Below are positions 14,620 through 44,432 of a stretch of DNA of 64,000 nucleotides, one piece after another. The notes beneath the pieces were generated by a model. That model was not told the origin of the DNA. It ran no database searches and worked only from the letters and a program-made list of their open reading frames with translations. Position 1 is the stretch's first letter. Each line of letters starts with the position of its first letter. Origin of the DNA: Escherichia coli (lineage in GTDB: Bacteria > Pseudomonadota > Gammaproteobacteria > Enterobacterales > Enterobacteriaceae); the NCBI RefSeq assembly GCF_044324875.1, contig NZ_CP172185.1; one strand, given 5' to 3'. Made by a program: the position numbers and the translations under genes.

Positions 14620-16707
14620 ATGCGAATAACCACTCTGGCTTCAGTAGCCATCCCTTGTCTCGGATTTTCAGTCAGCAGCATGGCTGCGGAAGATGTGATG
14701 ATAGTCACCGCATCCGGCTATGAAAAAAAATTAACCAGTGCAGCTGCGAGTGTTTCGGTGATCAGTCAGGAGGACTTGCGATCCAGCCAGTATCATGATC
14801 TTGGGGAGGCACTGAGATCCGTAGAGGGGGTGGATGTTGAAAGCGGTACGGGTAAAACCGGTGGACTGGAAATCAGCATCCGTGGAATGCCTGCCAGTTA
14901 TACGCTGATACTGATTGATGGTGTCCGTCAGGGCGGGAGCAGAGACGTAACCCCGAACGGTTTTTCTGCCATGAACACGGGGTTTATGCCACCTCTGGCC
15001 GCCATCGAACGTATTGAGATTATCAGGGGCCCCATGTCCACTCTGTACGGCTCTGATGCCATGGGGGGCGTGGTGAATATCATCACCAAAAAGAATGCAG
15101 ACAAATGGCATTCTTCAGTTAATGCCGGGCTGAACCTGCAGGAAAGTAACAAATGGGGGAACAGCAGCCAGTTTAATTTCTGGAGCAGCGGCCCCCTGGT
15201 GGATAATTCTCTCAGCCTGCAGGTACGTGGCAGCACGCAGCAGCGACAGGGCTCATCGGTCACATCACTGAGCGGCACCTCAGCCACGCGCATCCCTTAT
15301 CCAACAGAGTCACAGAATTATAATGCAGGTGCTCGTCTTGACTGGAAAGCAACGGACAAGGATATGTTCTGGCTTGATATGGATACTGCACGACAGCGTT
15401 ATGATAACCGGGACGGCCAGCTGGGCAGCCTTACTGGCGGTTATGATCGTACCCTGCGCTATGAACGTAATAAAATTTCGGCAGGTTATGATCATGCATT
15501 CACCTTCGGAACCTGGAAGTCATCCCTGAACTGGAATGAGACGGAAAATAAAGGCCGTCAGCTTGTACGCAGCGTACTGAAGCGTGATAAATGGGGACTT
15601 GCCGGCCAGCCGAGGGAGCTTAAGGAGTCGAATTTTATCCTGAATTCCTTACTGCTTGCACCTGTGGGTGAATCTCACCTGGTTACTGTCGGTGGTGAGT
15701 ACCAGAACTCATCCATGAAAGACGGGGTTGTTCTCACCAGTACAGGCGAAACCTTCCGGCAGAAAAGCTGGTCGGCATTTGTTGAGGATGAGTGGCATAT
15801 CACGGATGCGGTTGCACTGACTGTGGGCAGTCGTTATGAACATCATGAGGTGTTCGGAGGACACCTCAGTCCGCGGGCATATATGGTCTGGGATGTGGCT
15901 GATGAGTGGACGCTGAAAGGTGGGGTGACCACGGGATATAAGGCACCCGGCATGGGGCAGTTACATAAGGGGATCAGCGGTGTGTCCGGTCAGGGGCGTA
16001 CGAATCTTCTCGGTAACCCGGACCTGAAGCCGGAGGAGAGTGTCAGCTATGAAGCGGGCGTGTATTACGATAATCATGCCGGTCTGAACGCCAATATCAC
16101 GGGCTTTATGACAGAGTTCTCCAACAAGATCGTATCTTATTCTATTGATGATAATACCCGCAGCTATACAAACAGCGGAAAGGCCAGGACTCAGGGTGTG
16201 GAGTTTGCCGGCACACTGCCTCTGTGGTCAGAGGATGTGACGCTGTCTCTGAATTATACCTGGACGCAGAGTGAACAACGGGATGGGGATAATAAAGGTG
16301 CACCACTGAGTTACACCCCTGAGCATATGGTGAATGCGAAACTGAACTGGCAGATTACTGAAGATGTGTCATCATGGCTGGGTGCCCGTTACCGCGGGAA
16401 AACGCCACGTTTCACCCAGAATTATTCGTCACTCTCAGCTGTACAGAAGAAAGTGTATGATGAGAAAGGTGAATATCTGAAAGCCTGGACGGTACTGGAT
16501 GCGGGCATGTCGTGGAAAGTGACGGATGCACTGACGCTGAATGCAGCGGTGAATAATGTGCTTAACAAGGATTACAGTGACGTAAGTCTGTATCGTGCCG
16601 GCAGTGGTACGCTTTATGCGGGTGATTACTTCCAGACGGGGGCATCGACAACAGGTTATGTGATACCGGAGAGAAATTACTGGATGTCGCTGAGCTATCA
16701 GTTCTGA
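14620..16707 (+). CDS. iha: TonB-dependent outer-membrane siderophore receptor/adhesin, Iha/IrgA-like
   Basis: 695 aa; signal peptide; TonB box EDVMIVTAS; plug motif IEIIRGPMSTLYGSDAMGGVVNIITKK; C-terminal YQF; N-terminus matches recalled Iha sequence. Confidence 0.75.
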   Translation: MRITTLASVAIPCLGFSVSSMAAEDVMIVTASGYEKKLTSAAASVSVISQEDLRSSQYHDLGEALRSVEGVDVESGTGKTGGLEISIRGMPASYTLILIDGVRQGGSRDVTPNGFSAMNTGFMPPLAAIERIEIIRGPMSTLYGSDAMGGVVNIITKKNADKWHSSVNAGLNLQESNKWGNSSQFNFWSSGPLVDNSLSLQVRGSTQQRQGSSVTSLSGTSATRIPYPTESQNYNAGARLDWKATDKDMFWLDMDTARQRYDNRDGQLGSLTGGYDRTLRYERNKISAGYDHAFTFGTWKSSLNWNETENKGRQLVRSVLKRDKWGLAGQPRELKESNFILNSLLLAPVGESHLVTVGGEYQNSSMKDGVVLTSTGETFRQKSWSAFVEDEWHITDAVALTVGSRYEHHEVFGGHLSPRAYMVWDVADEWTLKGGVTTGYKAPGMGQLHKGISGVSGQGRTNLLGNPDLKPEESVSYEAGVYYDNHAGLNANITGFMTEFSNKIVSYSIDDNTRSYTNSGKARTQGVEFAGTLPLWSEDVTLSLNYTWTQSEQRDGDNKGAPLSYTPEHMVNAKLNWQITEDVSSWLGARYRGKTPRFTQNYSSLSAVQKKVYDEKGEYLKAWTVLDAGMSWKVTDALTLNAAVNNVLNKDYSDVSLYRAGSGTLYAGDYFQTGASTTGYVIPERNYWMSLSYQF

Positions 16708-23575: not shown

Positions 23576-23640
23576 ATTTGTATTATTTCTGATATTTTAT
23601 TTCAAAGGCGGTATTTACCGCCTTAATTAGTTTTATCCGT

Positions 23641-24813
23641 TTATTTATTTCCTTTTGAACGATTATGCGTAACGCAAAGCATTTCGCAATTATCAGGCTT
23701 ACTTTCACCCCCCTTACTCCATGCGGAAACATGGTCGGCTTCCATTTCTTTCAAAGCCCAGATTTTTGTTTTATTGGCATTATCTGAACTGGCGCAAAGG
23801 GGGCAGTTTGAAATACCTTGTTGCTCCGCTTTATCTGTTTGCCTTTTGTAGGCTTGTTTTTTAATTTTTTCATCAAAAAAGCGAATGTTTAATAAACGTT
23901 TATCAGATTGACCACCTAACACATATTCCCAGATGCCTTTAATGTTTTTTACACTATCATCCTGATATAATTTATTGATTTGCGTGGCTAATTCACCTGG
24001 ATTGTATGGTTTGTCTTTATAGGTTTCGTATAAACGCCCCCATTCCAGTCCGCACATTTCTTTTTTTACCTCGGTAAATGTGGTGTTAACCCAGTCAATC
24101 ACGCTATTGAAATAGGTTTTTAATTCCTTGATATTGTCATCATTACGATGGGCATTCATGTATTCGCTGATATTTCCTTTACTGACCCAGTTTAACGCAC
24201 ATTCTAAAATTTCCTGGCGTTTAACATTACCTTTGATGTAAGCACTCCATTTTTGCACATTTGAATTAGCAGAATTACTGAATTCTGCTTTTGCCAGTGT
24301 AACAAATTTGCCCGAATACACCGCATTCAATAATTCTTGTTCATTTAAAGGGACGCCAGTAATATTAATCGTTTTAAACCATTCTTTAATTTCGCTTTCT
24401 GTACCCTTACATTTGTAAATCAGCAAAGTGGTTTGTTTGATTTTCTCTTGTTGGTCTTGCGGTAAACTATGGAAATAGTATGGCGTGCCTTTATCATCTA
24501 TAATGGCGAATTTTCCGGTAACAAACCGCCCAATACTGGTAATGCGCTGCTGACCATCCAGTACTTCAAATGTATCTTCTGTATCTTTGTCAGGTTGATT
24601 AAAATAAATCAAACCGAGCGGATAACCTTTTAATACTGACTGGATAACTGCCACATCTTTCTTACCGTCTGCATAAATATAATTGCGTTGATATTCGGGC
24701 TGAATGGTAAGCTTTCCTGATAAACCAAACAAGCCTTTTCCCTCCAGTTCATTATAAACAAATCCATCGCACAATTGTTCAACGGTGATTGATGTATCTA
24801 ATTGTGTTTTCAT
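23641..24813 (-). CDS. DUF262 (ParB-like, DGQQR) plus C-terminal HNH nuclease
   Basis: motifs QPEYQR and DGQQR near N-terminus; HNH-like HVSAWSKGG...[10 protein letters not shown] at C-terminus; 15 bp after methyltransferase stop. Confidence 0.6.
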
Positions 24814-24828
24814 TTTTCACTTTTCCTT

Positions 24829-25983
24829 TTATTTATTTTGTGGATTGATGTGTTTAATAAGAATGCGTCCATAAGTACGTTTGCCGTTAATAACTGTACA
24901 CCCACCCCTATCTTCAGAATGTTGAGAATAATTTAAAATCTCCAGTATCTCTTCGGGAGTTGATGCTCGTGTATTACCACTTGCTTGCCAAATAATTTCA
25001 AACTGTTCAGGACAATATTTATCCAAAAAGCTAATTGGCACGCCCATAACTCCTGCATAATCGCTAGGAATACCGTTAGTTCTGGGCACTTCAATAGCAT
25101 CATAATTGTCATATGCCTGATAAGCGTTAGGGTCATTGATAATTTGTTTGTTGTATTTTAAATTATCCGCCATAGACATTAGCTGTAAAGATTGATGCCG
25201 TCTGCCGTGTTCAATATTGGTAAACCAACAAGAGTTACCCAAACGAGTATAATCACCTATATATCCTAGACGCTCCGCTTTTTTCTTATCAGCTTCCCTC
25301 ACATCAGCACCTTGTGGTACAGCAAAAACCATATCATTACCATTCCCAGTAGCACCCAACCAAATTTTATTTCCTTTGATAAGTGGAAAAATCTCTTTAT
25401 AAGTAATAGCATTCATATTACCGATAACGGCAAACTGCTTTTTACCTTCCATAATCCATGCCATAAATTCGCGAAACAGCGAAAAAGGCGGATTGGTGAT
25501 AATTATGTCGCTTTCATCGCGTAGAGCTTTGATTTCATCACTACGAAAATCGCCATCACCCTGCAGGTATTGCCATTTAATATCTTTAAAATCAATTACA
25601 CCATCGTGATTACTGTCTTCGGTTAGCGTGTAAATTTTGCCATGTTTCTGGCTTTTATCACTGTCGTATTGTTCACTTTCGCTTTCAAATAATGATGGCT
25701 GATAAGCTGTGTTTAACTGTTTGGATTGATGAGCGTAGCTGGTACTGATGAGCTTCTTTAATCCAAGTCGTTCAAAGTTTTGTGCAAAATAAAGTGTGAA
25801 ATTGCTCCACTCGGGGTCATCACATGGTAAGAGAATGGTTTTGCCACGAAATACGTCTTTATTGAAATCAAGATAGGCATTCATCTCTTTTTCAATATCA
25901 TGGTATTGGGTGTAAAATTCGTCATTTTTGGCTTTTTTTGCAGCAGAAAGATTACTGTTTTTGGCAGAAATATTCTTTGACAT
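24829..25983 (-). CDS. N6-adenine DNA methyltransferase (NPPF motif)
   Basis: catalytic motif IITNPPF; GGAGG RBS 7 nt upstream. Confidence 0.6.
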   Translation of the reverse strand: MSKNISAKNSNLSAAKKAKNDEFYTQYHDIEKEMNAYLDFNKDVFRGKTILLPCDDPEWSNFTLYFAQNFERLGLKKLISTSYAHQSKQLNTAYQPSLFESESEQYDSDKSQKHGKIYTLTEDSNHDGVIDFKDIKWQYLQGDGDFRSDEIKALRDESDIIITNPPFSLFREFMAWIMEGKKQFAVIGNMNAITYKEIFPLIKGNKIWLGATGNGNDMVFAVPQGADVREADKKKAERLGYIGDYTRLGNSCWFTNIEHGRRHQSLQLMSMADNLKYNKQIINDPNAYQAYDNYDAIEVPRTNGIPSDYAGVMGVPISFLDKYCPEQFEIIWQASGNTRASTPEEILEILNYSQHSEDRGGCTVINGKRTYGRILIKHINPQNK

Positions 25984-26033
25984 TTCAAACCTCCAAAACA
26001 GTATTGAAGGTTTGAAAAAACGGGGTTACATTA

Positions 26034-26152
26034 TGCTTGTTGCTTGTTGCTTGTTGCTTGTTGCTTGTTGCTTGTTGCTTGTTGCTTGTTGCTTGTTGCT
26101 TGTTGCTTGTTGCTTGTTGCTTGTTGCTTGTTGCTTGTTGCTTGTTGCTTGT
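26034..26152. repeat. heptanucleotide microsatellite (TGCTTGT)x17
   Basis: 17 perfect tandem units, 119 bp, beginning 50 bp upstream of the methyltransferase ATG. Confidence 0.9.
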
Positions 26153-26211
26153 ATTAGCATTGGATTTTCCCTTTTACTTGTCAAGTATTTTCTTTTGGAT
26201 TCTGAAGTTTT

Positions 26212-26538
26212 TCACGTATTCGTAACGATGGCATCAAGTGCAGCGATAATTTCATTTCTGGATGAAGAAATATTACATATAAAATCTTTGCTGTTTATTT
26301 TTTTTGCATCCAGGAACGTGAGCGCCGGGGTGAACACATAGAAATCCGATGTCTCTATTTTAACTAATGGCGTTATCCTTTTCTTTTTAAGCTCAATATC
26401 ATTTTTTGATACCAGAGGCACGACTATCCTTGTGGTTAAATCGTCAAAATAATCATTCTGGAGAATAAGGTAGAACGGCCAGAGTTTATTCGTTCTGACC
26501 GATGGATTGCGGTATACATCAAATTGCTTTGGCATCAC
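26212..26538 (-). CDS. CcdB-like toxin candidate
   Basis: 108 aa; QFDVYRN...FYLILQNDYF...PL pattern resembles CcdB; 4-nt overlap with upstream antitoxin-like ORF. Confidence 0.4.
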   Translation of the reverse strand: MMPKQFDVYRNPSVRTNKLWPFYLILQNDYFDDLTTRIVVPLVSKNDIELKKKRITPLVKIETSDFYVFTPALTFLDAKKINSKDFICNISSSRNEIIAALDAIVTNT

Positions 26539-26783
26539 AGACTCCCAAAGAAATCGTCATCCGTCAACATTCCTGCTTTTGCCATAAATTTATTCATAGT
26601 GTGCATATCCTGTTTTTCTTCTTCCCGCTCTACAGTTTTGGCCTCGATAGCCTGTGCCAGAAGGTTATCCAGTGTTGCCGACAGGTTCATGTCCATACTC
26701 CGGGCTTTATCAACCAGTGAGGCCGTCAGGTAAACGTTGGTGCTTCTTTTGTTGCTGTTACGAGTGGTGGCAACTGTATTCAT
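26535..26783 (-). CDS. CcdA-like antitoxin candidate
   Basis: 82 aa from ATG 26783 (AGGAG RBS); table ORF 26535-26879 trimmed. Confidence 0.4.
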   Translation of the reverse strand: MNTVATTRNSNKRSTNVYLTASLVDKARSMDMNLSATLDNLLAQAIEAKTVEREEEKQDMHTMNKFMAKAGMLTDDDFFGSL

Positions 26784-28944: not shown

Positions 28945-29187
28945 TGTCGCTTCGGCGACCACCAATGTTCCATGAGGCCTGTGAGGAACGCCTTCGGGTG
29001 GCCCACGTCGCTCCGGCGACCACCAATGCTCCATCTGACCTGTGAGGAGCGCCTTCGGGTGGTCAGTTTTACACCTCCGTAGCCTGAAAGGAGCTGTGCG
29101 TGCTGATGGGATATGTTCCCGGAAGTACGGGTAAATCTGCACACCTTTGCGAGCAGATGTCACCACGGTTTACGTGATGATGAAGGC
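28945..29187. repeat. 244-bp direct repeat copy A with internal 48-bp tandem sub-repeat
   Basis: about 95 percent identical to 31740-31983. Confidence 0.8.
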
Positions 29188-29921
29188 ATTCCGGATTTCG
29201 TCCGGTACTTTTACTTTTTCTCAGCAGACTTTCATAAAAATGCTTTATGGATCTGCTTCTTAAGATGTTTTCTGGCTTTCCGCATAAGCTTCTTATGACT
29301 GTGCGCACGGCATAAGGCCATTTGAAATTTGGCCGCTTGCGTGTGTACGTGGATTTTGAAGCCTTGCGGCGTCACTTGAGTGCGACCGTAGGGAACACCA
29401 AGTGACGCCACAACAATCTGCCCTGAAAGCAGCATCACGTAAGGCCAGCCAGAAAATCGTCGCTCGTGACCAGCGTTCTGATGACCGTTTCGTCTGTCTG
29501 ACAGCGTCTTTCAGTAACGTGTCCATGCCTTTCCGGCGCGTCCGTTTTCACGGACGGCCACGCCGGAATGTCTTTTTAAACTTCATAATACATGAGAGGT
29601 AAGTGTATTAACTTGTTGAAAAAAGGAATAAATATGAAAAATCGTTCTGAAGTCGGAAGGCGTCATCGTAAGATGACGGGGAGTAAAAAATCGCCCTGGT
29701 GCACAGGTAGCGAACTCCTGTAAAAACTCAACATGTGCAAGCTCTGCTACATCGACATCAAACGAGCCAGGAAGGCGAGCAACCGCGTTACAGAGCCGTC
29801 CGTGATGACGAAAAACTAACAATATCAACGATCTGGTCTGTTTATCGGAAGGGCATCTCATGCAGTTGAACTTTCAGAACGGATGGTTTTCTGCATCTTT
29901 TTTAACAGGGGGATTGACGTT

Positions 29922-30839
29922 ATGTCCCGTAAATCGTCACGTTCCAAAGTTGAAGTCTTTCGCAAGTCATTCATCTCACTTGCCCGTGATTGTGGTGGCA
30001 GCTACGCAACAACCGCTGACAGAATGCGAATTGCCAGATACTTTTTGAATTATTTGCAAGTAAACGGTATCAAACTTCGTCAGACGGGCAGTATTAAGAC
30101 GAGGCATATTTCTGGTTATCTTCTCAGCAGGAAAGAGCAGGGGATCTCTCACCGCACAATTCAGAATGAACGGGCAGTTATGCGCGCAATTCTAGAGAAA
30201 GATGGTCGCCTTAAAATAGCGGATCCGTCCAATCCTTTATTGAGCAATGAAGCTCTTGGACTCAGGGATACATGCCGTGATGGTAAAAAGATACCACTCT
30301 CACAGGATGAGTTTAATAAAGCCTTCAGTAAGGTTGAAAAAAATAATCCCGGTGTTGCTGCAGTAATGCAAATTTCTTATGTTCTTGGACTGAGGACAAA
30401 AGAAGCTGTTCAGTCTTGTAAATCAGTTAACTCGTGGCTACGTGAACTTGATTCAGGGCATGATTCTCTTCTCGTTGTTTTTGGGACGAAAGGTGGAAGG
30501 CCCAGAGATACAACGATCATTAATCGTGATGCAGTGAAACATGCGCTCATTTATGCAAAAAACATTATGGATAAACAGAATGGTAAACTTATCGATTGCC
30601 CCAATATTAAACAGGCTATAAACGTATATCGTTACCATGTAAGAAAAGCTGGTTTATCTGGAGTGAAGGCACCACATAGTATGCGTTATCATTTTTCGCA
30701 GGAAGCAAGGCAGTTTTATCGAAAAAGTGGATATGGAGATAAAGAAATTTACGCAAGGGTTTCCATGGACCTTGGTCATGGTGACGGAAGAGGGCGTTAT
30801 GTAAAACAGGTCTACTTTAAAGGCGATGATGAGAGCTGA
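29922..30839 (+). CDS. tyrosine-recombinase-like protein (integrase family)
   Basis: C-terminal HSMRYHFS...LGHGDGRGRY resembles Box II HxLRH...LGH...Y; AGGGGG RBS. Confidence 0.45.
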   Translation: MSRKSSRSKVEVFRKSFISLARDCGGSYATTADRMRIARYFLNYLQVNGIKLRQTGSIKTRHISGYLLSRKEQGISHRTIQNERAVMRAILEKDGRLKIADPSNPLLSNEALGLRDTCRDGKKIPLSQDEFNKAFSKVEKNNPGVAAVMQISYVLGLRTKEAVQSCKSVNSWLRELDSGHDSLLVVFGTKGGRPRDTTIINRDAVKHALIYAKNIMDKQNGKLIDCPNIKQAINVYRYHVRKAGLSGVKAPHSMRYHFSQEARQFYRKSGYGDKEIYARVSMDLGHGDGRGRYVKQVYFKGDDES

Positions 30840-30842
30840 TAT

Positions 30843-31583
30843 TTAAAATGAATCCGGAGGATATGTGTTTTTCGCGAACTTATTAATTTCTGTAATAAGA
30901 ATTTCTGATGCACGATTACACATGCTCTCATTAAAGTATCCTATATGGCATTCATGGATGCGGCAATTTAGTTTTCTGGATAGCCATCTGTTTGCCTCGT
31001 TACGGGATATATTTGTTTTTTGCTGATAGCTGTCAAAAAGTTTACGCACTTGTGCTCTGAGTATTCTCAAATTTTCTTTAGCTGGAGTACCTAATGGTCT
31101 CCCTGAATTTTTATGACATCCAACCCATGCATTGCATGGGCTGCAAATCCAGTAATATTTGTTTTCTGTAGTGGGTGTCGTGGAAAATGGCATAAGTGCA
31201 CCTTTTCTGAGTTGTGCCTTATTACCACAGTAAGTGCAGATTACAATTGGACGAACATCTGCAATATTCAGTGCTGCATAAGTAAGACGTTCATTTTTCA
31301 TCATGTTTCGTTTTCCACAGTCAGTGAGAATATGCTTTATTGTGTCTAATTCTTCTCGGAGTATTTTTGAACGGACGCCAGTTCGATAACGCTGTTGAAA
31401 GTAGAGCTCAATATGGCGTAGTTTTATACTATTTATTGATTTTATCTGTATATTGGATTCTTTAAGAAATGAAGCAAATCTTCTGGCTCTCCCCATATAT
31501 ACCAGTATGTCTTCTGGTGTCGGGGCGCATGCTTTAGCTATTTTGATTAGCTCATCTTTTAATTTTTTGTATTTCGATTTCAT
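30843..31583 (-). CDS. integrase-N-terminal-like domain plus Cys-rich zinc-ribbon protein
   Basis: CTYCGN...CSPCNAWVGCH and CRIHECH clusters; convergent with 29922-30839. Confidence 0.4.
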   Translation of the reverse strand: MKSKYKKLKDELIKIAKACAPTPEDILVYMGRARRFASFLKESNIQIKSINSIKLRHIELYFQQRYRTGVRSKILREELDTIKHILTDCGKRNMMKNERLTYAALNIADVRPIVICTYCGNKAQLRKGALMPFSTTPTTENKYYWICSPCNAWVGCHKNSGRPLGTPAKENLRILRAQVRKLFDSYQQKTNISRNEANRWLSRKLNCRIHECHIGYFNESMCNRASEILITEINKFAKNTYPPDSF

Positions 31584-31739: not shown

Positions 31740-31983
31740 TGTCGCTTCGGCGACCACCAATGTTCCATGTGGCCTGTGAGGAACGCCTTCGGGTGGCCCA
31801 CGTCGCTCCGGCGACCACCAATGCTTCATCTGACCTGTGAGGAGCGCCTTCGGGTGGTCAGTTTTACACCTCCTGAGCCTGAAAGGAGCTGTGCGTGCTG
31901 AAGGGATATGTTCCCGGAAGTACGGGCAAATCTGCGCACCTTTGAGAGCAGATGTCACTGCGGTTTTCCGTGATGATGAAGGC
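31740..31983. repeat. 244-bp direct repeat copy B
   Basis: pairs with 28945-29187. Confidence 0.8.
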
Positions 31984-33331: not shown

Positions 33332-33884
33332 CTGTCTTTGTTCATGGCTTTTCAACAGACCGTTATGCTTTCGCCACCACATGGTAAGGCGGGTCTGATT
33401 TTACTGTTAACCGTACGGTTCACTCTCATACCGTACGGTGGGAGTGAACCCTTTTCATTAAGGACACTCTCATGAAAACGAAAACTTCTGCACCTGCTGT
33501 ATATGTTGGTACCTGGGCTAAATACAACAATGGCAGCATAGAAGGATGCTGGTTTAATGATTTAACCGTTTTTGAAACTGAAAGCGATTTTTTATCTGCG
33601 GCCCGTAAGTTTCATCAGGATGAAAAAGATCCTGAATTTATGTACCAGGATTATGAAAACTTTCCTTCGGGAATGGCTTCAGTGCAAAATGGCATCTGAA
33701 TCGATCGCAGTTTGGCATTCGAATCGATCATGATTTGGCATCCATCTCCGATCACAGTTTGGCATCACAATCGATCACGATTTGGCATGCTTCCGATCAT
33801 TGATTGGCATCCTGCCAGTCACTCCGGGAATTAACTCTTTTCACCACAGTCTCCATTGCCGTGTTTAAACCAGTGGAGACGTCA

Positions 33885-35450
33885 ATGTCCAGAAAGAGAA
33901 AATCCAGGAGCACTATGGAAACCTGTTTTAAGATCCTTCAGCTCAAGTTCGACAAGAAGCTGACTAACCGTTGTATCGGACTGACGTTACACATCAGCGC
34001 CTCAACCGTTTTTGAGGTTCTTGCCCGCTTCAAAGCCTCTTCTCTGTCATGGCCATTACCTGCTGATATATCCCATGACACGCTGGAGAAACTCATTTTT
34101 CCGCCCAAAGACACCTTTGCATCAGAGCTTGTAATGCCTGACATGTTGTACTTCGATACGGAAATGAGAAAACCAGGTGTGACGCGGCAACTGTTGTGGA
34201 TGGAATACAAGGCACAGGCGGGTAACAAAGCGATGGGATACTCGCACTTCTGCCGTTGCTACCGGGAGTGGAAAAAAACGCGACGTCTCTCCATGCGCCA
34301 GGAGCATCGTGCCGGCGAAAAGCTTTTTATCGACTTCTGTGGTCCTACGGTTCCTGTTATTAATCCGGACACCGGTGAGATACGCCGCGTGGCAATCTTC
34401 GTGGCCGTAATGGGGGCGTCCAACTATACCTACGTTGAAGCGTGCGAAGGTCAGGACATGATGTCATGGTTAAATGCCCACAGCCGTTGCCTGACCTTCC
34501 TGGGCGGCGTACCGAAGCTGCTCATCCCCGATAACCTCAGAAGCGCAGTGAAAAAGGCCGATCGATATGAGCCTGTCATCAACGACAGTTATCAGGCACT
34601 GGCTGAGCACTATGGCACGGTTATCATCCCGGCCCGACCACGCAAACCTAAAGATAAACCAAAAGCAGAAAACGGCGTCCTCATCGTTGAACGATGGCTT
34701 CTTGCCCGCATCCGTAATGAAACCTTCCACACGCTCAGGGCGCTGAATGCGCGCCTTAGGGAGTTACTGACAGACATGAATAACCGGCCAATGAAGGGGT
34801 ACGGCAATCAAACCCGTGCAGAACGCTTCCGCATACTGGATGCGCCAGCACTCTCTCCGCTGCCTCTGGCACCTTATGAATACACGGAATACAAAGCTGT
34901 GAAGGTTGGCCCTGACTACCACGTTGAATATGCCCGTCACTGGTACTCCGTTCCACACGAACTGGTCGGTCAGCGTCTGTCACTGAAGGCGGGGCAGTCG
35001 GTGGTACAGCTCTGGCACAAGGGGCAGTGTGTGGCGCAACATCCGCGCAGCACACATGAATATAAACACACAACCAATCCGCTTCACATGCCAGAGCGCC
35101 ACCGGCAGCACGGGACATGGACACCGGAACGCCTGATCGAGCAGGGAAAACGTACGGGCCCGTCCACAGGCCGGGTGGTTGAATCCATGCTGAAGGCAAA
35201 ACCCCATCCGGAACTGGCTTATCGTGCAGTTCTGGGGCTGCTGGCACTTCAGAAAAAATACGGCCCGGAACGGCTGGAAAAGGCCTGTTACGTTGCCCTG
35301 CACTATAACGCCCCTGACAGACGCTTTATCGACAATCTGCTGCGTCACCATCGGGAGAACCTGGAGCTTCCATTATCCCGCCAGGGCGAACAACATCCGG
35401 CATATGCTTCAGAGCATGAAAACCTGCGTGGTCCGGGCTACTACCACTGA
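33885..35450 (+). CDS. istA: IS21-family transposase IstA
   Basis: 521 aa, N-terminal HTH and DDE-like core; GGAGA RBS. Confidence 0.7.
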   Translation: MSRKRKSRSTMETCFKILQLKFDKKLTNRCIGLTLHISASTVFEVLARFKASSLSWPLPADISHDTLEKLIFPPKDTFASELVMPDMLYFDTEMRKPGVTRQLLWMEYKAQAGNKAMGYSHFCRCYREWKKTRRLSMRQEHRAGEKLFIDFCGPTVPVINPDTGEIRRVAIFVAVMGASNYTYVEACEGQDMMSWLNAHSRCLTFLGGVPKLLIPDNLRSAVKKADRYEPVINDSYQALAEHYGTVIIPARPRKPKDKPKAENGVLIVERWLLARIRNETFHTLRALNARLRELLTDMNNRPMKGYGNQTRAERFRILDAPALSPLPLAPYEYTEYKAVKVGPDYHVEYARHWYSVPHELVGQRLSLKAGQSVVQLWHKGQCVAQHPRSTHEYKHTTNPLHMPERHRQHGTWTPERLIEQGKRTGPSTGRVVESMLKAKPHPELAYRAVLGLLALQKKYGPERLEKACYVALHYNAPDRRFIDNLLRHHRENLELPLSRQGEQHPAYASEHENLRGPGYYH

Positions 35451-39268: not shown

Positions 39269-42184
39269 TTACTGAGTCAGTTTTTTTATCAGGTCGTGAA
39301 TTTTATCACCTGAAAACTGGGTCATGAAAGTTATCTTTATGGATTTACTGATTTGTTCGAAGAGTTTCTGTGCATGTTTTATTTTATCGCGTTCTTCATG
39401 TCTGAGTTCACGTTTGCCATCAACATTTTTGGTTTCAATAATAAGGTTCAGATAATCACCCTTTGACGTGTTTACAACATAAGCGAAGTCAGGGGAGTAA
39501 GTGTATCCTCCCGCTACAGGAATTTTTATTGAATTTTTGGGGATCTTTGTGAAGACAATGACTGACCTGACCTCACCCTCTGTCATATTGAGTTTTTCAA
39601 GTTCTGAATCATAAAATACTTCTTCAAAAAGATAAGAGTCCAGTGGAGGGCTTGTATTATCCTGTAAAACGCCAAGATCACTTGACAATACATCAGCAAG
39701 ATAACCGCCGTCTGCATTGGTGAATTTCGTGGGATGGACAGTTCCTGATATTACATTATACCCAAGGCTGAATTTACTGAACGAGTTATTAAGCAAATAC
39801 TTGCTGAAACCAGATTTAATTTTTCTGATTGTCTGAATGTTAAGGTATTCAGTTATATTTATGATGTCTTTTATATCACAAAAAACCTTATGCATGGTGT
39901 CATGTTTGACAAAAATAGTCTGTGATAATTTATCAAGGAATTCACGATAGCTCATTGTGTTTATTTTGTGAAAATTATCCTCATCAACACTGAGAATGCT
40001 TTTCGACATTGCCGTATCATTATGGATATAAATTCTTTCAATACGAGTATGAGCACCGGATTTGGTAAATCTGTCTGCTTCTTCCAGCATAAACGCTCTG
40101 AAAAGGGATAAAAACTCACGTTCACTTTTTATTTTATACTCAATCACGACCTTTTGATTGATCAAGTCCCATAGTTCTTTCAGCTCACTGAACTTACCAA
40201 CACGCATTTTAGTGCGTCTTTTTCCATCAGAGGCTTTTTTTATTTTGCCTGGTTTCACTCCTGCAGGAAATGCTGCCGGATATCTGGCTTTTAAGCGGCT
40301 ATAGGCATCTGAATCTTTGAAGTTATCATTATCATCAATGATCTCATCATCAAAAATTTCATTCAAGAGTGTTCTGGAGGAAAGCTCCGGATATTGAGAC
40401 AGGATTTTATCCTTAAGTTCCTGAGTAAACTTACCTGGAACAGTCTCTTTGAAAGAACTATCGTTGATCTCTTTGACAAGAGAATCGACAAAATCTTTTT
40501 CTGTAAAATCAACATAATAGTTGAGGGTAAAATTGCGGTCTTTCACACGACACATGTATTCATTCACCGGAAGACGTAAACCACGCCCTACTTCCTGAAG
40601 TTTAGATGTGGTGCTACCGCTCGAACGGAGCTTACAAATCTGAAAGACATTTGGGTTATCCCATCCCTCACGCAACGTCCATTTAGAGAAAATGAAACGG
40701 CGAGGATTTTCTAAAGACAATAGAAGCTCTTTATCATGAAGGATTTCGTTGATTTCCTGCTCAATTTTATCATCTTTATCACTATTATCTTTTGAAAAAT
40801 AACCACCATGAACAGAAGATATATCCTTAACAGTTTTTTCAAGGTAGTTTCTGTAAAACTCATCTTTTTCTGTTTTTAACAGTTCATTTGCTTCTGCCAA
40901 AACGTATTCTTCGAACTTAGTTTTCAGGCTTCCTGCAATATCATTACCATCACGATAGCCTTCAATGTCATCAATGAAGAAAAGAGTAAGAGGTTTTATG
41001 CGTGGCCTTTGTGTCAGATACTCTTTTTCTAACTTAAAGTGTTCTTTGACAGCTTTACGTATCATGTTATCAGCAAGTGTCTGATCGTAAGAATAGGGGT
41101 TTATCGAACTACCAATTTTTAGCTCAATACCATTACTCAACACTGCTGTATTCTTATTTAAAGCATCAAGAGTTAAATCATGGATCGCACTATGCGTCTT
41201 AGATAGTGATTCACCTTTGGCTAACTTAAAAATTTTTTTATTATTATTTTCGTTCAGTTCAAATGTAGCTTCTTTTCCGTCAGATTTGACCAACTTGAGG
41301 TTGGCATTACCATCACCAACTATATCCTCAATGTATGCATCAATACCTTTAACAAGATCTTCATTGAAGGCATCTACGGCTGTAAGACGATAAACTAAGT
41401 TCTTATATCCTTCACTAAAGGTTGCACCATAGCGGATGATATATTGGGCATTAAATTTTTGAATATGTTCCCATGTCTTTTTACCAGTAGGAAATTTATG
41501 AGGCTCATCAATGATAATGAATGGTTTTATCGCACTAAGTGCAGAAAATGGGGTATCAAACTGATTATTAAGCAAGCCAACATCATAAGTGTCAGTTAAA
41601 GACTTAGAGTTAATCATCCCTGAATTGATCACAAGAATGTGTATATATTTCTTATTGAAATTACTTGCTTCAACAAAATCATGGATAGCTTGAGGCATAT
41701 ACGATTTTGTATTTTTACCCGAACGTTTCTGACTTTCAACAACGTAAGTCTTTAGTTCACGCTCGTAATCATCTCGAAAGTGTTCTTTTATAGCATCGCT
41801 TTTTAAAAAGTTAACGGTTCCGGCTTTGATCGATAGGGTAGGAACAATGATGATAAACTTGTTAATACCAAATGATTTGTTCAGGTCAAAAATTGTTTTG
41901 GTGTAAGTATAAGTTTTACCTGTACCTGTCTCCATAGAAACATCAATTACGTTGCTTTTAGCATCGTAATTATCTTTTGAGTGCTCAATACCATTGAACT
42001 CCTGAACATTTTTTATGTTGTTGTAGTATTGTTGTTCAGATAGATTCAGTTCTGGATTAGCTAACAGGCGAATTGCAACATGATCCGTCTGATGAGGTAT
42101 GGCGGATACAAAGACATTCATTACCGAATCAACGCCAGCCTTTTGATGAGGTAAATTTTTTTCGAATGTGAACCCTTTAGACAT
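39269..42184 (-). CDS. res: Type III restriction enzyme, Res subunit
   Basis: 971 aa; Walker A METGTGKT; DEAH-like IIIDEPH; immediately downstream of mod. Confidence 0.8.
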   Translation of the reverse strand: MSKGFTFEKNLPHQKAGVDSVMNVFVSAIPHQTDHVAIRLLANPELNLSEQQYYNNIKNVQEFNGIEHSKDNYDAKSNVIDVSMETGTGKTYTYTKTIFDLNKSFGINKFIIIVPTLSIKAGTVNFLKSDAIKEHFRDDYERELKTYVVESQKRSGKNTKSYMPQAIHDFVEASNFNKKYIHILVINSGMINSKSLTDTYDVGLLNNQFDTPFSALSAIKPFIIIDEPHKFPTGKKTWEHIQKFNAQYIIRYGATFSEGYKNLVYRLTAVDAFNEDLVKGIDAYIEDIVGDGNANLKLVKSDGKEATFELNENNNKKIFKLAKGESLSKTHSAIHDLTLDALNKNTAVLSNGIELKIGSSINPYSYDQTLADNMIRKAVKEHFKLEKEYLTQRPRIKPLTLFFIDDIEGYRDGNDIAGSLKTKFEEYVLAEANELLKTEKDEFYRNYLEKTVKDISSVHGGYFSKDNSDKDDKIEQEINEILHDKELLLSLENPRRFIFSKWTLREGWDNPNVFQICKLRSSGSTTSKLQEVGRGLRLPVNEYMCRVKDRNFTLNYYVDFTEKDFVDSLVKEINDSSFKETVPGKFTQELKDKILSQYPELSSRTLLNEIFDDEIIDDNDNFKDSDAYSRLKARYPAAFPAGVKPGKIKKASDGKRRTKMRVGKFSELKELWDLINQKVVIEYKIKSEREFLSLFRAFMLEEADRFTKSGAHTRIERIYIHNDTAMSKSILSVDEDNFHKINTMSYREFLDKLSQTIFVKHDTMHKVFCDIKDIINITEYLNIQTIRKIKSGFSKYLLNNSFSKFSLGYNVISGTVHPTKFTNADGGYLADVLSSDLGVLQDNTSPPLDSYLFEEVFYDSELEKLNMTEGEVRSVIVFTKIPKNSIKIPVAGGYTYSPDFAYVVNTSKGDYLNLIIETKNVDGKRELRHEERDKIKHAQKLFEQISKSIKITFMTQFSGDKIHDLIKKLTQ

Positions 42185-42186
42185 GA

Positions 42187-44223
42187 TTAGTTTCTTACCA
42201 CCAAATCTAAATCAATAGATTTTTTATTAGCATAACTTTTTAGTGCTTCATTGAGTTCCATCTGTTTCGCACTTTCGAAGTTGCTGCCATAAAATACAAC
42301 TTTGTTAGGGGCAAAGTCTTTGTCTGCATCCAGCTTTTGAAGTAAAGCTTTCAAAGCCTCACTTGTGAAATTAGGCGCAATTAGATATAGCCGACCATCG
42401 CACAAGTGTGCTTTGTAGCCATTAAGGTCAATATCTTCAATTGGTGTTGTTAGCAAGCTGCCATCATACACGCACCATGTCGTCAATAGAGTGTCATACT
42501 GCTCTGGTGTCAATACAGCATCGTCAAAGAAACTAAGATTAGAAAGCGTAAGTTCAGACTCATCTTTCACTCGAAAATTATGAACTGTTTCAAATATTTT
42601 AAATCCCAAATCTCCATTATAATTAGGATTATCTTTTTTCAGCTTTTTTCCTGCCTTAATAATTCTGTCTTTTGTTATATTGAAGATGGATTTATACCCT
42701 TCTTTATAGGCTTGTTTCTTTTTATCTGTTTCTTCATCTAATTGAACACAGATGAAGTTTCTTTTCCTGCCGTCTTCAATATTTAACTCCAGAATACCAT
42801 GAGCTGTAGTTCCAGAGCCAGCAAAAAAGTCAAGATAAATGTCTTTATCTTCGGTTTTTACTGAACCAAATAGTGTTTTTATTAAACTTGTTGGCTTCGG
42901 GTAGGAGAAATATCCTTTCCCACCAAAAAGATTTTCAACCTCAACACCACCATCACTTTTAGTTGAAATAATTGATCTTAGTAAAAACTCTTCAACTTCA
43001 TCTAAAAATTTAACCGAACTGGGTTGGGTGTTTTCTGTACTGGCAAACCAAATTCCACCACAAATAACGCTACCATCATGTAGTTTTTTGATATCTGCAT
43101 ACTTTCCATCTATTCTTTTTGCAATATGATTAAAAGTGCCTTCTTTCCAACGCCAGCCTCTGTCTGGGATTTTGACAGGGTTATTAGTCAAAGGGTGCAA
43201 TACTTCATACGTGGGTCCAAATGAATCTGCATTAGGCCAGCTCATATTAATTTTACCCCATGGCCTATAATCTTCGTTCAAACAGTTGTAAAGAGTAATT
43301 CCACGATCATATCCGTTGGAGCTGTAGAATTTTTTGAGTTGCTGCTCTGCTTTATCTAATGGCACCTTCTCCTTTTTTAACTTTTCAATAAACTGATATA
43401 CATCATCAATACCATCTTTCCGCATTAAAAATTCTTTACTTATTTCGTTATTCTTCGCATAAGCAAGGATGTACTCATGGATATTACCAATACCCTTATC
43501 ATTTTTAGGGATACGTTTATTCCATACAATATTTTCTATGAAATTTGCTTCGCCAAAAATTTCATCACAAATAGTTTTAAGTTGATTTAATTCATTTTCG
43601 TCAATCGAAATAAATATCACACCATCTTCACGTAGAAGCTCACGAGCAATATATAAACGAGGATAAATGAACGTTAACCATGCGCTATGGCTGCTTGAAC
43701 CATTCGTGGTAAATTCAAGTATACGTTTAGCCTCATCAAGATCGATACCTGCCAGATCAGAAAGCTGTTCAGGTGTAAACTTGCGATCATCGTTATAGGC
43801 GAATCCATCCTTACCTGTATTGTATGGTGGATCAATGTAAATCATCTTCACCTTTTCAGAGTAAGCATTAACCATATGCTTCAATACTTCGAGGTTATCC
43901 CCTTTGATTAACAGATTCTGACTGTTTTTGTTCTCTTCACGTTGGTTATGGTCTTTATCTTCGGAGAGTAATGTCTTCGGCGGCAAGTTAGCTAACAGAC
44001 GGGCATAGGATTTACCAAGCCAGTTCAGGCTGTATGATTCTTTGGAGAGTTCAACATCCGATGATTTGACGATTTCAAGCAATTTTTCCTGAATGAACGC
44101 TCCATTTTTATCAAAACACTGTGGAAAGTTAGCCTTTAAAATCGCAAGCTGTTTACTGTTTGTGGTTTCAGTTTCAGAGAAAAGAGTTTCTTTTTTCAGT
44201 TGAAATTGGGGTTGTGTATTCAT
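42187..44223 (-). CDS. mod: Type III restriction-modification methyltransferase, Mod subunit
   Basis: 678 aa; DPPY motif (IYIDPPYNTG); AdoMet motif FFAGSGTT; GGAGG RBS. Confidence 0.8.
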   Translation of the reverse strand: MNTQPQFQLKKETLFSETETTNSKQLAILKANFPQCFDKNGAFIQEKLLEIVKSSDVELSKESYSLNWLGKSYARLLANLPPKTLLSEDKDHNQREENKNSQNLLIKGDNLEVLKHMVNAYSEKVKMIYIDPPYNTGKDGFAYNDDRKFTPEQLSDLAGIDLDEAKRILEFTTNGSSSHSAWLTFIYPRLYIARELLREDGVIFISIDENELNQLKTICDEIFGEANFIENIVWNKRIPKNDKGIGNIHEYILAYAKNNEISKEFLMRKDGIDDVYQFIEKLKKEKVPLDKAEQQLKKFYSSNGYDRGITLYNCLNEDYRPWGKINMSWPNADSFGPTYEVLHPLTNNPVKIPDRGWRWKEGTFNHIAKRIDGKYADIKKLHDGSVICGGIWFASTENTQPSSVKFLDEVEEFLLRSIISTKSDGGVEVENLFGGKGYFSYPKPTSLIKTLFGSVKTEDKDIYLDFFAGSGTTAHGILELNIEDGRKRNFICVQLDEETDKKKQAYKEGYKSIFNITKDRIIKAGKKLKKDNPNYNGDLGFKIFETVHNFRVKDESELTLSNLSFFDDAVLTPEQYDTLLTTWCVYDGSLLTTPIEDIDLNGYKAHLCDGRLYLIAPNFTSEALKALLQKLDADKDFAPNKVVFYGSNFESAKQMELNEALKSYANKKSIDLDLVVRN

Positions 44224-44432
44224 AACGCACCTCCAGAATGCACGGAGGTACTTGACGCGGAATTTTTATACAGGCATATTGTTGCGTTGCGTTGCGTTGC
44301 GTTGCGTTGCGTTGCGTTGCGTTTCGTTGCGTTGCGTTGCGTTGCGTTGCGTTGCGTTGCGTTGCGTTGCGTTGCGTTGCGTTGCGTTGCGTTGCGTTGC
44401 GTTGCGTTGCGTTGCGTTGCGTTGCGTTTCAT
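44220..44432 (-). CDS. repeat-encoded leader ORF (QRNAT)n overlapping mod start
   Basis: ATG at 44432 followed by the 5-mer tract; TGA overlaps mod ATG as ATGA. Confidence 0.35.
   Translation of the reverse strand: MKRNATQRNATQRNATQRNATQRNATQRNATQRNATKRNATQRNATQRNATICLYKNSASSTSVHSGGAL
44281..44425. repeat. pentanucleotide microsatellite (GTTGC)x29; GCAAC on mod strand
   Basis: 29 tandem units with one GTTTC variant. Confidence 0.9.

Follow-up and report, generated by a model that had tools for sequence, protein, structure and literature searches.

Organization of the locus

The stretch of DNA analysed here, termed the window in the following, comprises 64,000 nucleotides of the Escherichia coli contig NZ_CP172185.1. 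On its (-) strand, a methylase gene is followed by a nuclease gene, with a gap of 15 nt between the stop codon of the first and the start of the second, and the two genes are putatively a restriction-modification (R-M) module (Table 1). The spacer between the methylase gene and the upstream ccdB gene contains a perfect heptanucleotide repeat, which lies within a short leader open reading frame (ORF) and is followed by a predicted hairpin.

The original prediction, which was made from the sequence alone, had described an NPPF-type adenine methylase located 15 bp before a protein with an N-terminal DUF262 domain (motifs QPEYQR and DGQQR) and a C-terminal HNH motif. The ORFs of the window and profile searches against Pfam confirmed this arrangement on the (-) strand, and the methylase, DUF262 and HNH assignments were all supported, with the motifs at the places given for them. 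The CcdAB-like pair said to lie immediately upstream on the same strand was also found there. Furthermore, the designation as a non-canonical R-M-like module proved broadly right, as the nuclease has a GmrSD-like architecture and no classical Type II fold.

Table 1. Features of the module and of other loci in the window; window positions are counted from its first nucleotide.
Feature	Residues (aa)	Window position	Strand	Description or evidence
Methylase gene		24829-25983	(-)	384 aa, EcoRI-family N6-adenine DNA methyltransferase
NPPF catalytic motif	164-167	25483-25494	(-)	read directly from the sequence
VR1, putative specificity cassette	~206-252	25228-25368	(-)	E. coli alleles and 74 loci
VR2, putative specificity cassette	~333-370	24874-24987	(-)	43 types in 74 loci
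Nuclease gene		23641-24813	(-)	390 aa: ParB/Srx-like DUF262 domain, helical middle part, HNH domain
DUF262/GmrSD_N domain	36-166	24316-24708	(-)	Pfam PF03235, E=3.3e-21
DGQQR motif	86-90	24544-24558	(-)	inside the DUF262 domain
HNH domain with zinc-binding cysteines	337-390	23644-23805	(-)	Pfam PF01844, E=2.9e-6
Predicted 14-bp hairpin		25983-26017	(-)	RNAfold; pairs the methylase Shine-Dalgarno sequence GGAGG and the A of the ATG
Leader ORF MLIQ(ATSNKQQ)nATSIM*		26026-26160	(-)	contains the repeat; preceded by Shine-Dalgarno-like AAGGG
Heptanucleotide simple-sequence repeat (CAAGCAA)n, coding strand		26034-26152	(-)	Tandem Repeats Finder (TRF): 17.0 copies, 100% matches
ccdB		26212-26538	(-)	toxin-antitoxin pair with ccdA, context only; RefSeq annotation of identical loci
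ccdA		26535-26783	(-)	as for ccdB
Terminator-like GC-rich hairpin		23605-23624	.	after the nuclease stop codon; terminator scan
Type III R-M system		39269-44432	(-)	res 39269-42184, mod 42187-44223; strong PADLOC Type III matches

Domains and conserved residues of methylase and nuclease

The methylase matched the Pfam family EcoRI_methylase (PF13651, E=1.9e-131) over its full length, and the residues N164, P165, P166 and F167 of the NPPF motif were invariant in 40 methylase homologues. Among the PADLOC models, MTase_II covers the whole methylase (7e-96) and REase_II the whole nuclease (3e-86). No NCBIfam model matched either protein, and the search for relatives in the PDB by sequence yielded chance matches only (E>0.01). 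With its full-length PF13651 match and the NPPF motif the methylase resembles M.EcoRI; it differs in the two shuffling cassettes of its subfamily and in the partner, which is a DUF262-HNH protein and not an EcoRI-type PD-(D/E)XK nuclease. A preprint on the classification of methyltransferases lists 19 gold-standard enzymes of non-canonical architecture, including those found by the EcoRI_methylase profile, and among these it reports a conclusive proof of activity for M.SsoI alone, which is identical to M.EcoRI (10.1101/2023.12.13.571470).

In the nuclease, the QPEYQR motif (aa 38-43) lies, like DGQQR, inside the DUF262 domain. Alignment of 53 diverse nuclease homologues showed that Q42, R43, D86, G87 and R90 are invariant, with Q88 and Q89 conserved to at least 90%. 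In the HNH domain, C337 and H361 are invariant, and C340, D360, N375, C380 and N384 are likewise conserved to at least 90%. This conservation argues that the nucleotide-binding motif and the nuclease site are both under selection. In addition, the invariant DGQQR motif suggests that cleavage goes beyond a reaction dependent on Mg2+ only and includes a step that depends on nucleoside triphosphates (NTPs). The closest structures to the fold of the nuclease are BrxU, SspE and DndI, together with HNH domains. HNH (PF01844) and HNH_5 were the only nuclease-domain matches, and no Pfam match to DUF1524 was obtained for this protein.

Interrupted forms of the nuclease gene occur in E. coli. In strain 2015C-3121 (locus L008, 3042-4991) an IS1A element is inserted in this gene, leaving a DUF262 and an HNH fragment beside an intact methylase; this is one of the six complete E. 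coli genomes carrying the module. Furthermore, a truncated nuclease variant of 298 aa is frequent in E. coli assemblies (P0043, 38 members).

Distribution of the family and linkage of the two genes

The nuclease family comprises 431 representatives of clusters at 50% identity (E<=1e-30). Members with 56-76% identity were found in Pasteurellaceae, Moraxella, Neisseria, Acinetobacter, Bacteroidota, Chloroflexota, Firmicutes and Actinomycetes, as well as in bacteria of the candidate phyla radiation (CPR), Spirochaetota, Verrucomicrobiota and others. Family members are also located on integrative conjugative elements (ICEs), on plasmids and in a few phages. The public names of the cluster members are generic ('DUF262 domain-containing' or 'HNH endonuclease family', for example), and the family is already catalogued in that PADLOC files both proteins under Type II. 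A search of the full-text literature found no description of a pair consisting of a DUF262-HNH nuclease and an EcoRI-family methylase; the Menshen paper merely raises the idea that DUF262 domains beside lone methylases might target unmodified DNA.

Linkage was scanned with one genome per species in 80 loci, 76 of which had enough flanking DNA to be evaluated. An EcoRI-family methylase was present on the strand of the nuclease in all 76, distributed over more than 10 phyla, and it was located directly upstream of the nuclease in 75. Relatives of only 36-42% identity likewise keep this arrangement. The pairing, which the original prediction had called unusual, is hence obligate in this nuclease clade, and models for both partners, REase_II and MTase_II, already exist in PADLOC. 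Over 74 methylase-nuclease pairs, the identities of the methylase core and of the nuclease were correlated (r=0.50). At one of the loci with 36-42% identity a divergent gene for a helix-turn-helix (HTH) protein resembling a controller protein was observed.

A continuous methylase-DUF262-HNH fusion of 688 aa is encoded on a metagenomic contig in which TGA is read as tryptophan (genetic code 4; locus L013, 4001-6067). Orphan methylases without a nuclease occur in several phages. Taken together, the linkage, the fusion, the orphan methylases of phages and the nuclease disrupted by IS1 fit an R-M module and do not fit a Type IV enzyme beside an unrelated gene.

The architecture of DUF262 and a His-Me finger is that of GmrSD and BrxU, and the nuclease shares the N-terminal DUF262 domain with DGQQR with these Type IV enzymes. 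It could thus be a modification-dependent nuclease which is merely located beside an unrelated methylase gene. We consider this extremely improbable in view of the linkage in 76 of 76 loci across phyla with a fixed gene order, the natural fusion, the correlated identities of both proteins and the lack of a DUF1524 match. GmrSD and BrxU have about 560-600 aa, possess DUF1524, stand alone and attack modified DNA, whereas the nuclease studied here has 390 aa, a canonical zinc-binding HNH domain (PF01844), and is always encoded with an N6-methyladenine (m6A) methylase. The strict linkage to the methylase itself argues against a modification-dependent nuclease.

In some lineages other ORFs are located between the two genes, as in Acinetobacter (292 aa) and Mannheimia (DUF417). 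Such intervening ORFs were considered as a third, 'real' restriction gene and rejected, because they are lineage-specific insertions that are absent from most loci. Inserts between methylase and nuclease were also detected in CPR loci (L052, 3383-3985; L066, 2523-3981; L047, 610-1211), where a 200-aa protein matches the PADLOC model PDC-S57 and a 280-aa protein PDC-S13; these inserts are candidate defence genes embedded in the R-M pair. At another locus (L100, 2263-5122), which lies on a metagenomic contig resembling a phage or plasmid, three ORFs (81, 299 and 83 aa) make up a split methylase, and the nuclease downstream of them is intact. This is either an assembly error or a case in which the nuclease survives without a whole methylase.

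Variable cassettes of the methylase

Two methylase alleles occur in E. coli, which are unrelated in VR1 and VR2 and about 100% identical elsewhere; one is present in strains CM2, TUM1886 and 2013C-3033, the other in STEC2018-553 and 2015C-3121. The nucleases partnering these alleles are 96% identical, and their differences are evenly spread. For statistics over the family, 74 methylase-nuclease pairs from the fetched loci were used, and cassette types were defined by single-linkage clustering at 50%. The conservation of the methylase falls to 15-40% exactly in VR1 and VR2; the nuclease shows no comparable dip and no variable segment. Moreover, VR identity between pairs is bimodal (about 0.1-0.2 or 0.5-0.9), and the identities of methylase core and nuclease are unimodal.

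The 74 loci contain 26 types of VR1 and 43 types of VR2 in 67 combinations, and the two cassettes assort independently (r=0.04). VR1 but not VR2 is shared by 208 pairs of loci, VR2 but not VR1 by 47, and both by 5. Nuclease identity shows no correlation with VR identity (r=0.05 and 0.07; partial r=-0.02), and nucleases of 96% identity are paired with methylases whose cassettes have only 25% and 2% identity. No alignment column of the nuclease tracked the cassette type beyond the level of permuted labels; the observed maximum was reached in 163 of 200 and 63 of 200 permutations, respectively. Discrete cassettes which are freely reassorted between constant flanks, and which are themselves conserved in different phyla, are the hallmark of target-recognition elements as known from HsdS or Mod alleles, and we infer that VR1 and VR2 determine the DNA target. 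If they are target-recognition elements, one constant nuclease serves many specificities and cannot itself read the site.

This bears on the most conventional explanation, a classical Type II R-M system, in which the HNH nuclease would independently recognise and cut the unmethylated sequence of the methylase, and DUF262 would serve in DNA binding or dimerisation only. The locus does contain a methylase with a catalytic (D/N)PP(Y/F) motif and an adjacent endonuclease gene with an intact catalytic motif, as is characteristic of Type II. PADLOC Type II models match both proteins, the genes are tightly paired with a gap of 15 nt, a C-protein-like HTH gene lies beside the pair in some relatives, and the decay is R-M-like, with the nuclease disrupted and the methylase kept. 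KpnI, MnlI and Eco31I are Type II HNH enzymes with separate methylases, which read their own site and need no NTP. The present nuclease is likewise an HNH protein encoded beside a cognate methylase and filed under Type II, but differs from these enzymes in its invariant NTPase-type motif and in the lack of covariation with the methylase cassettes. A uniform nuclease beside cassettes that are swapped, with no column tracking them, argues indirectly against an independently sequence-specific enzyme, and a nucleotide-dependent step is indicated by the strictly invariant DGQQR. In addition, a methylase switched by a repeat would be dangerous in combination with an independent nuclease, yet Mannheimia has all three repeat frames together with an intact nuclease. 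A classical Type II system is for these reasons quite unlikely.

The original prediction held that neither the target nor the preference of the nuclease for modified or unmodified DNA can be read from the sequence. The comparative data do bear on the latter point, as they argue against a modification-dependent as well as an independently site-specific nuclease.

Repeat, leader and hairpin upstream of the methylase

A repeat-bearing promoter had been proposed for the two genes. The repeat is indeed present with 17.0 perfect copies of a 7-nt unit; the promoter part did not hold, as the element is a simple-sequence repeat in a leader ORF and the promoter scan remained at the level of shuffled sequence. 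The number of copies varies between strains and amounts to 17, 11, 14, 12, 9, 2 and 2 in seven E. coli genomes. If n mod 3 is 2, the leader ORF stops 42-43 nt before the methylase ATG. If n mod 3 is 0, its stop codon is a TGA located 1 nt before this ATG; the longer ORF is annotated by the prokaryotic genome annotation pipeline (PGAP) in strain 2013C-3033. The hairpin has a predicted stability of -20 kcal/mol, with z=-3.7 and -4.5 in two E. coli variants compared.

In Mannheimia haemolytica a good promoter (TTGATT-16-TATAAT), a Shine-Dalgarno sequence, an ATG, the repeat (AATCA)12-16, a predicted hairpin and the methylase ATG follow each other in this order, so that the leader is homologous to that of E. 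coli but contains a different repeat unit. The hairpin (z=-3.0) shows one compensatory pair change. All three repeat frames are found among eight genomes of this species, and both genes are intact in all of them. Thus, a strain-variable 5' repeat, as it is characteristic of phase-variable methylase loci, is present in E. coli (2-17 copies) as well as in Mannheimia (12-16 copies).

In two further lineages, the 5' end of the methylase ORF itself includes a repeat, which is (AAGCCGC)6 in a betaproteobacterial and (GA)8 in a Rickettsiales-like genome. In the assembled sequence, the upstream ATG is out of frame in either case. In 69 other loci only 3 repeats were counted upstream of the methylase at about 0.5 expected, an enrichment that is suggestive and not strong. 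Structured 5' leaders (z<-2.5) occur in 18 of 74 family loci, and part of them may be DNA operators and not RNA hairpins. In the Bacteroidales loci L021, L074 and L095 a long shared inverted repeat (GATTGATAGT...ACTATCAATC) was observed in the region about 60 nt upstream of the methylase, which extends as far as the start codon. Either an RNA hairpin covering the start site or a palindromic operator is conceivable.

A second example of this layout is present in the window itself. Upstream of the mod gene of the Type III system lies a leader ORF of 70 aa (44220-44432) with a perfect pentanucleotide repeat, (GCAAC)x29.6, at 44281-44428. The TGA of this leader overlaps the ATG of mod (ATGA), and an anti-Shine-Dalgarno/Shine-Dalgarno stem (ACCTCC...GGAGGT) is located just upstream. 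The order of leader, repeat and stem is that of the module described here. In Bibersteinia, a Type III mod gene has been reported to have a repeat of the GCAAC unit 43 bp upstream, and no mechanism was offered (PMC4996451).

The hypervariable repeat might also be the mark of an epigenetic switch (phasevarion) or of a selfish addiction cassette in E. coli, with a weak or decaying nuclease and defence as a secondary function. The nuclease interrupted by IS1 in one genome, the truncated variants common in E. coli, the transfer of the module by ICEs, plasmids and phages, and its position beside ccdAB are consistent with this. However, an intact nuclease whose catalytic residues are invariant or conserved to at least 90% across phyla points to selection on nuclease function, and such an explanation is on its own improbable. 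It is nevertheless compatible with the R-M module proposed here and does not exclude it.

Proposed mechanism and comparison with known systems

Methylase and nuclease can be interpreted as a two-gene R-M module of a widespread family, which follows a logic closer to Type III than to classical Type II systems and whose expression is gated by the leader; judged from the comparative sequence data, the chances that this is correct appear about even. According to this proposal, the methylase would mark the host DNA at a target set by VR1 together with VR2. The nuclease, which would have no sequence specificity of its own, would act at unmethylated methylase sites, being either recruited there by the methylase or licensed by the methylation state. 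The ParB/Srx-like domain with DGQQR would be an NTP-driven switch and the HNH domain the cutter. Expression would be gated by the hypermutable leader repeat. In one of the three frames, a ribosome translating the leader would run through the hairpin that hides the ribosome binding site and stop at the methylase start, so that translational coupling would increase the translation of the methylase. In the remaining frames, the leader would end about 42 nt upstream and the hairpin would stay closed. A switchable methylase would be easier to reconcile with a nuclease that depends on it, as in Type III systems, than with an independent one.

The parallels to Type III systems of the EcoP15I-like mod-res type include the order of methylase and nuclease, an apparent specificity that resides in the methylase only by way of swappable segments, and a constant nuclease. 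Furthermore, the Type III nuclease carries an NTPase, to which the NTPase-type motif DGQQR would correspond, and the methylase is putatively under the control of a simple-sequence repeat. The components themselves are different. Res consists of a helicase-like ATPase of superfamily 2 (SF2) and a PD-(D/E)XK domain, and Mod is a beta-class methylase (PF01555), whereas the present proteins are of the ParB-like plus HNH type and of the PF13651 type. They have no sequence relationship to Type III proteins, and no PADLOC Type III model matched them, unlike the true Type III pair of the window.

Going one step further, the family might be an unrecognised class of NTP-dependent R-M systems. A methylase with two swappable cassettes would act as self-marker and targeting subunit at the same time, a ParB-like switch with an HNH domain would stand in for the motor of helicase type and the PD-(D/E)XK nuclease found in Type III enzymes, and a phase-variable leader would act by translational coupling. 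As the layout is shared by the mod gene of the window, Type III mod genes might be preceded by such a leader device as well. We put this forward tentatively and consider it possible, with the odds somewhat against it. The apparent logic, i.e. specificity in the methylase only, a GmrSD-like nuclease and translation controlled by a repeat-containing leader, is not described in the literature searched.

A closely related explanation is sensing as in SspE and DndI, in which DUF262 would read the m6A marks of the host and control the NTPase, and unmarked DNA would be nicked or cut without binding of the methylase. BrxU, SspE and DndI are the closest structures, and a precedent exists, since the DUF262 domains of SspE and DndI are NTPases regulated by the phosphorothioate mark of the host (stimulated in SspE), and the nuclease domain nicks DNA (PMC10952713, PMC11662687). 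Sensing would also explain a nuclease that is blind to specificity and the tolerance of OFF states of the methylase. On the other hand, m6A as a mark is far smaller than phosphorothioate or glucosyl-hydroxymethylcytosine, and one constant protein would have to face dozens of sequence contexts. The C-terminal domain is moreover a canonical HNH and not DUF1524. In comparison with SspABCD-SspE and DndBCDE-DndI, the mark would come from a single EcoRI-family adenine methylase and not from a sulfur-insertion pathway, and the nuclease is much smaller; ssp or dnd genes were not found in the neighbourhood of the module. The computed data do not separate sensing from recruitment by the methylase. All in all, we regard sensing of this kind as rather unlikely.

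Several observations weigh against the mechanism proposed above. The literature searched yielded no biochemical or genetic data on any family member. The nuclease has a Shine-Dalgarno sequence of its own, and in Mannheimia another gene separates it from the methylase; a dependence of the nuclease on the methylase is therefore not evident from the operon structure. The pair is filed as Type II by PADLOC and presumably by REBASE too. VR1 and VR2 comprise only about 35-47 aa and are smaller than classical target-recognition domains. Furthermore, NPPF is replaced by FPSF in the only natural fusion, whose methylase moiety may have lost its catalytic activity and be kept for a different role. With regard to the leader, 4 of 15 repeat frames seen in the genomes are coupled, which is consistent with a complete lack of selection, and the assignment of frames to ON and OFF states is a prediction. 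The hairpin of the Type III mod gene appears in the minimum-free-energy fold, but is not significant in comparison to shuffled sequences (z=-0.97).

If the proposal is correct, a different principle would underlie a family that is now classed as ordinary Type II and occurs in many phyla, on plasmids and in some phages, and dozens of methylase specificities would share a single constant nuclease. The ParB/Srx nucleotide switch would gain a role in the restriction of unmodified DNA, and the effectors GmrSD, SspE and DndI would be linked to conventional self-recognition by methylation. The modular cassettes would also represent a natural toolkit for re-targeting the methylase and, through it, the nuclease. 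The device of leader, repeat and hairpin offers a testable mechanism for repeats located about 40-60 nt upstream of methylase starts, which were described with no explanation for the Type III system of Bibersteinia (PMC4996451). A switching adenine methylase could, in addition, serve as a phase-variable epigenetic regulator in pathogens, for example in Mannheimia haemolytica and Shiga-toxin-producing E. coli.

Genomic context and further observations

The locus is 99.8% identical to the chromosome of E. coli strain CM2. The host element is an ICE of the PFGI-1/ICEclc type, and the module is located in its low-GC cargo part; the GC content of the module region is 36-41% versus 53-60% in the upstream backbone of transfer genes. 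TIGR037xx transfer genes and a TraG-N protein are encoded upstream of the module, and an integrase, ArdA and the Type III R-M system downstream. The pair was present in 6 of 5426 complete E. coli genomes, every time together with ccdAB.

In identical E. coli loci, the two genes directly upstream of the methylase on the same strand are named CcdA and CcdB family by RefSeq. CcdB of the window matched the NCBIfam CcdB model only weakly (E=7.9e-6, under the curated cut-off). Homologues of ccdAB with 84-89% identity are frequent on enterobacterial plasmids that lack the R-M pair, and in other taxa the pair occurs without adjoining ccdAB, which is its neighbour in E. coli only. CcdAB was therefore rejected as a component of the system and is regarded as a neighbour of the module.

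Between ccdB and the methylase gene, a sigma-70 promoter was considered and rejected; TTGACA is present at 26179-26184, without an acceptable -10 element, and predicted promoter sites in the module region were no more numerous than in shuffled sequence. In E. coli the module may be transcribed from the ccdA promoter. The terminator-like hairpin behind the nuclease gene was called on the (+) strand, on which the stem has a T-rich tail behind it, and as found it would terminate a convergent gene on this strand; read on the (-) strand of the operon, the same stem is followed by a weaker T-tail. The count of terminator-like sites in the region was no higher than in shuffled sequences. The convergent gene, which shares this hairpin, encodes a paralogue of the type B (zinc-independent) ribosomal protein L31 (23271-23534, (+) strand) and belongs to the ICE cargo.

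Further features were observed elsewhere in the window. Two nearly identical arrays of a 61-bp unit (1.9 copies each; 28946-29062 and 31741-31857) flank a gene with an integrase domain (29883-30839) and an ORF of 246 aa (30843-31583), which is named zinc-finger-containing in RefSeq. The two arrays may mark the boundaries of a small mobile cassette within the ICE. Imperfect, iteron-like tandem repeats of 23/47 bp (CGATCAC...TTTGGCATC) are located at 33690-33811, directly upstream of and overlapping the start of an ORF of 548 aa (33804-35450), for which no PADLOC match was obtained. Finally, an ORF of 695 aa (14620-16707) lies among the conjugation genes of the ICE; in the matching locus of strain CM2 it is named Iha siderophore receptor/adhesin by RefSeq.

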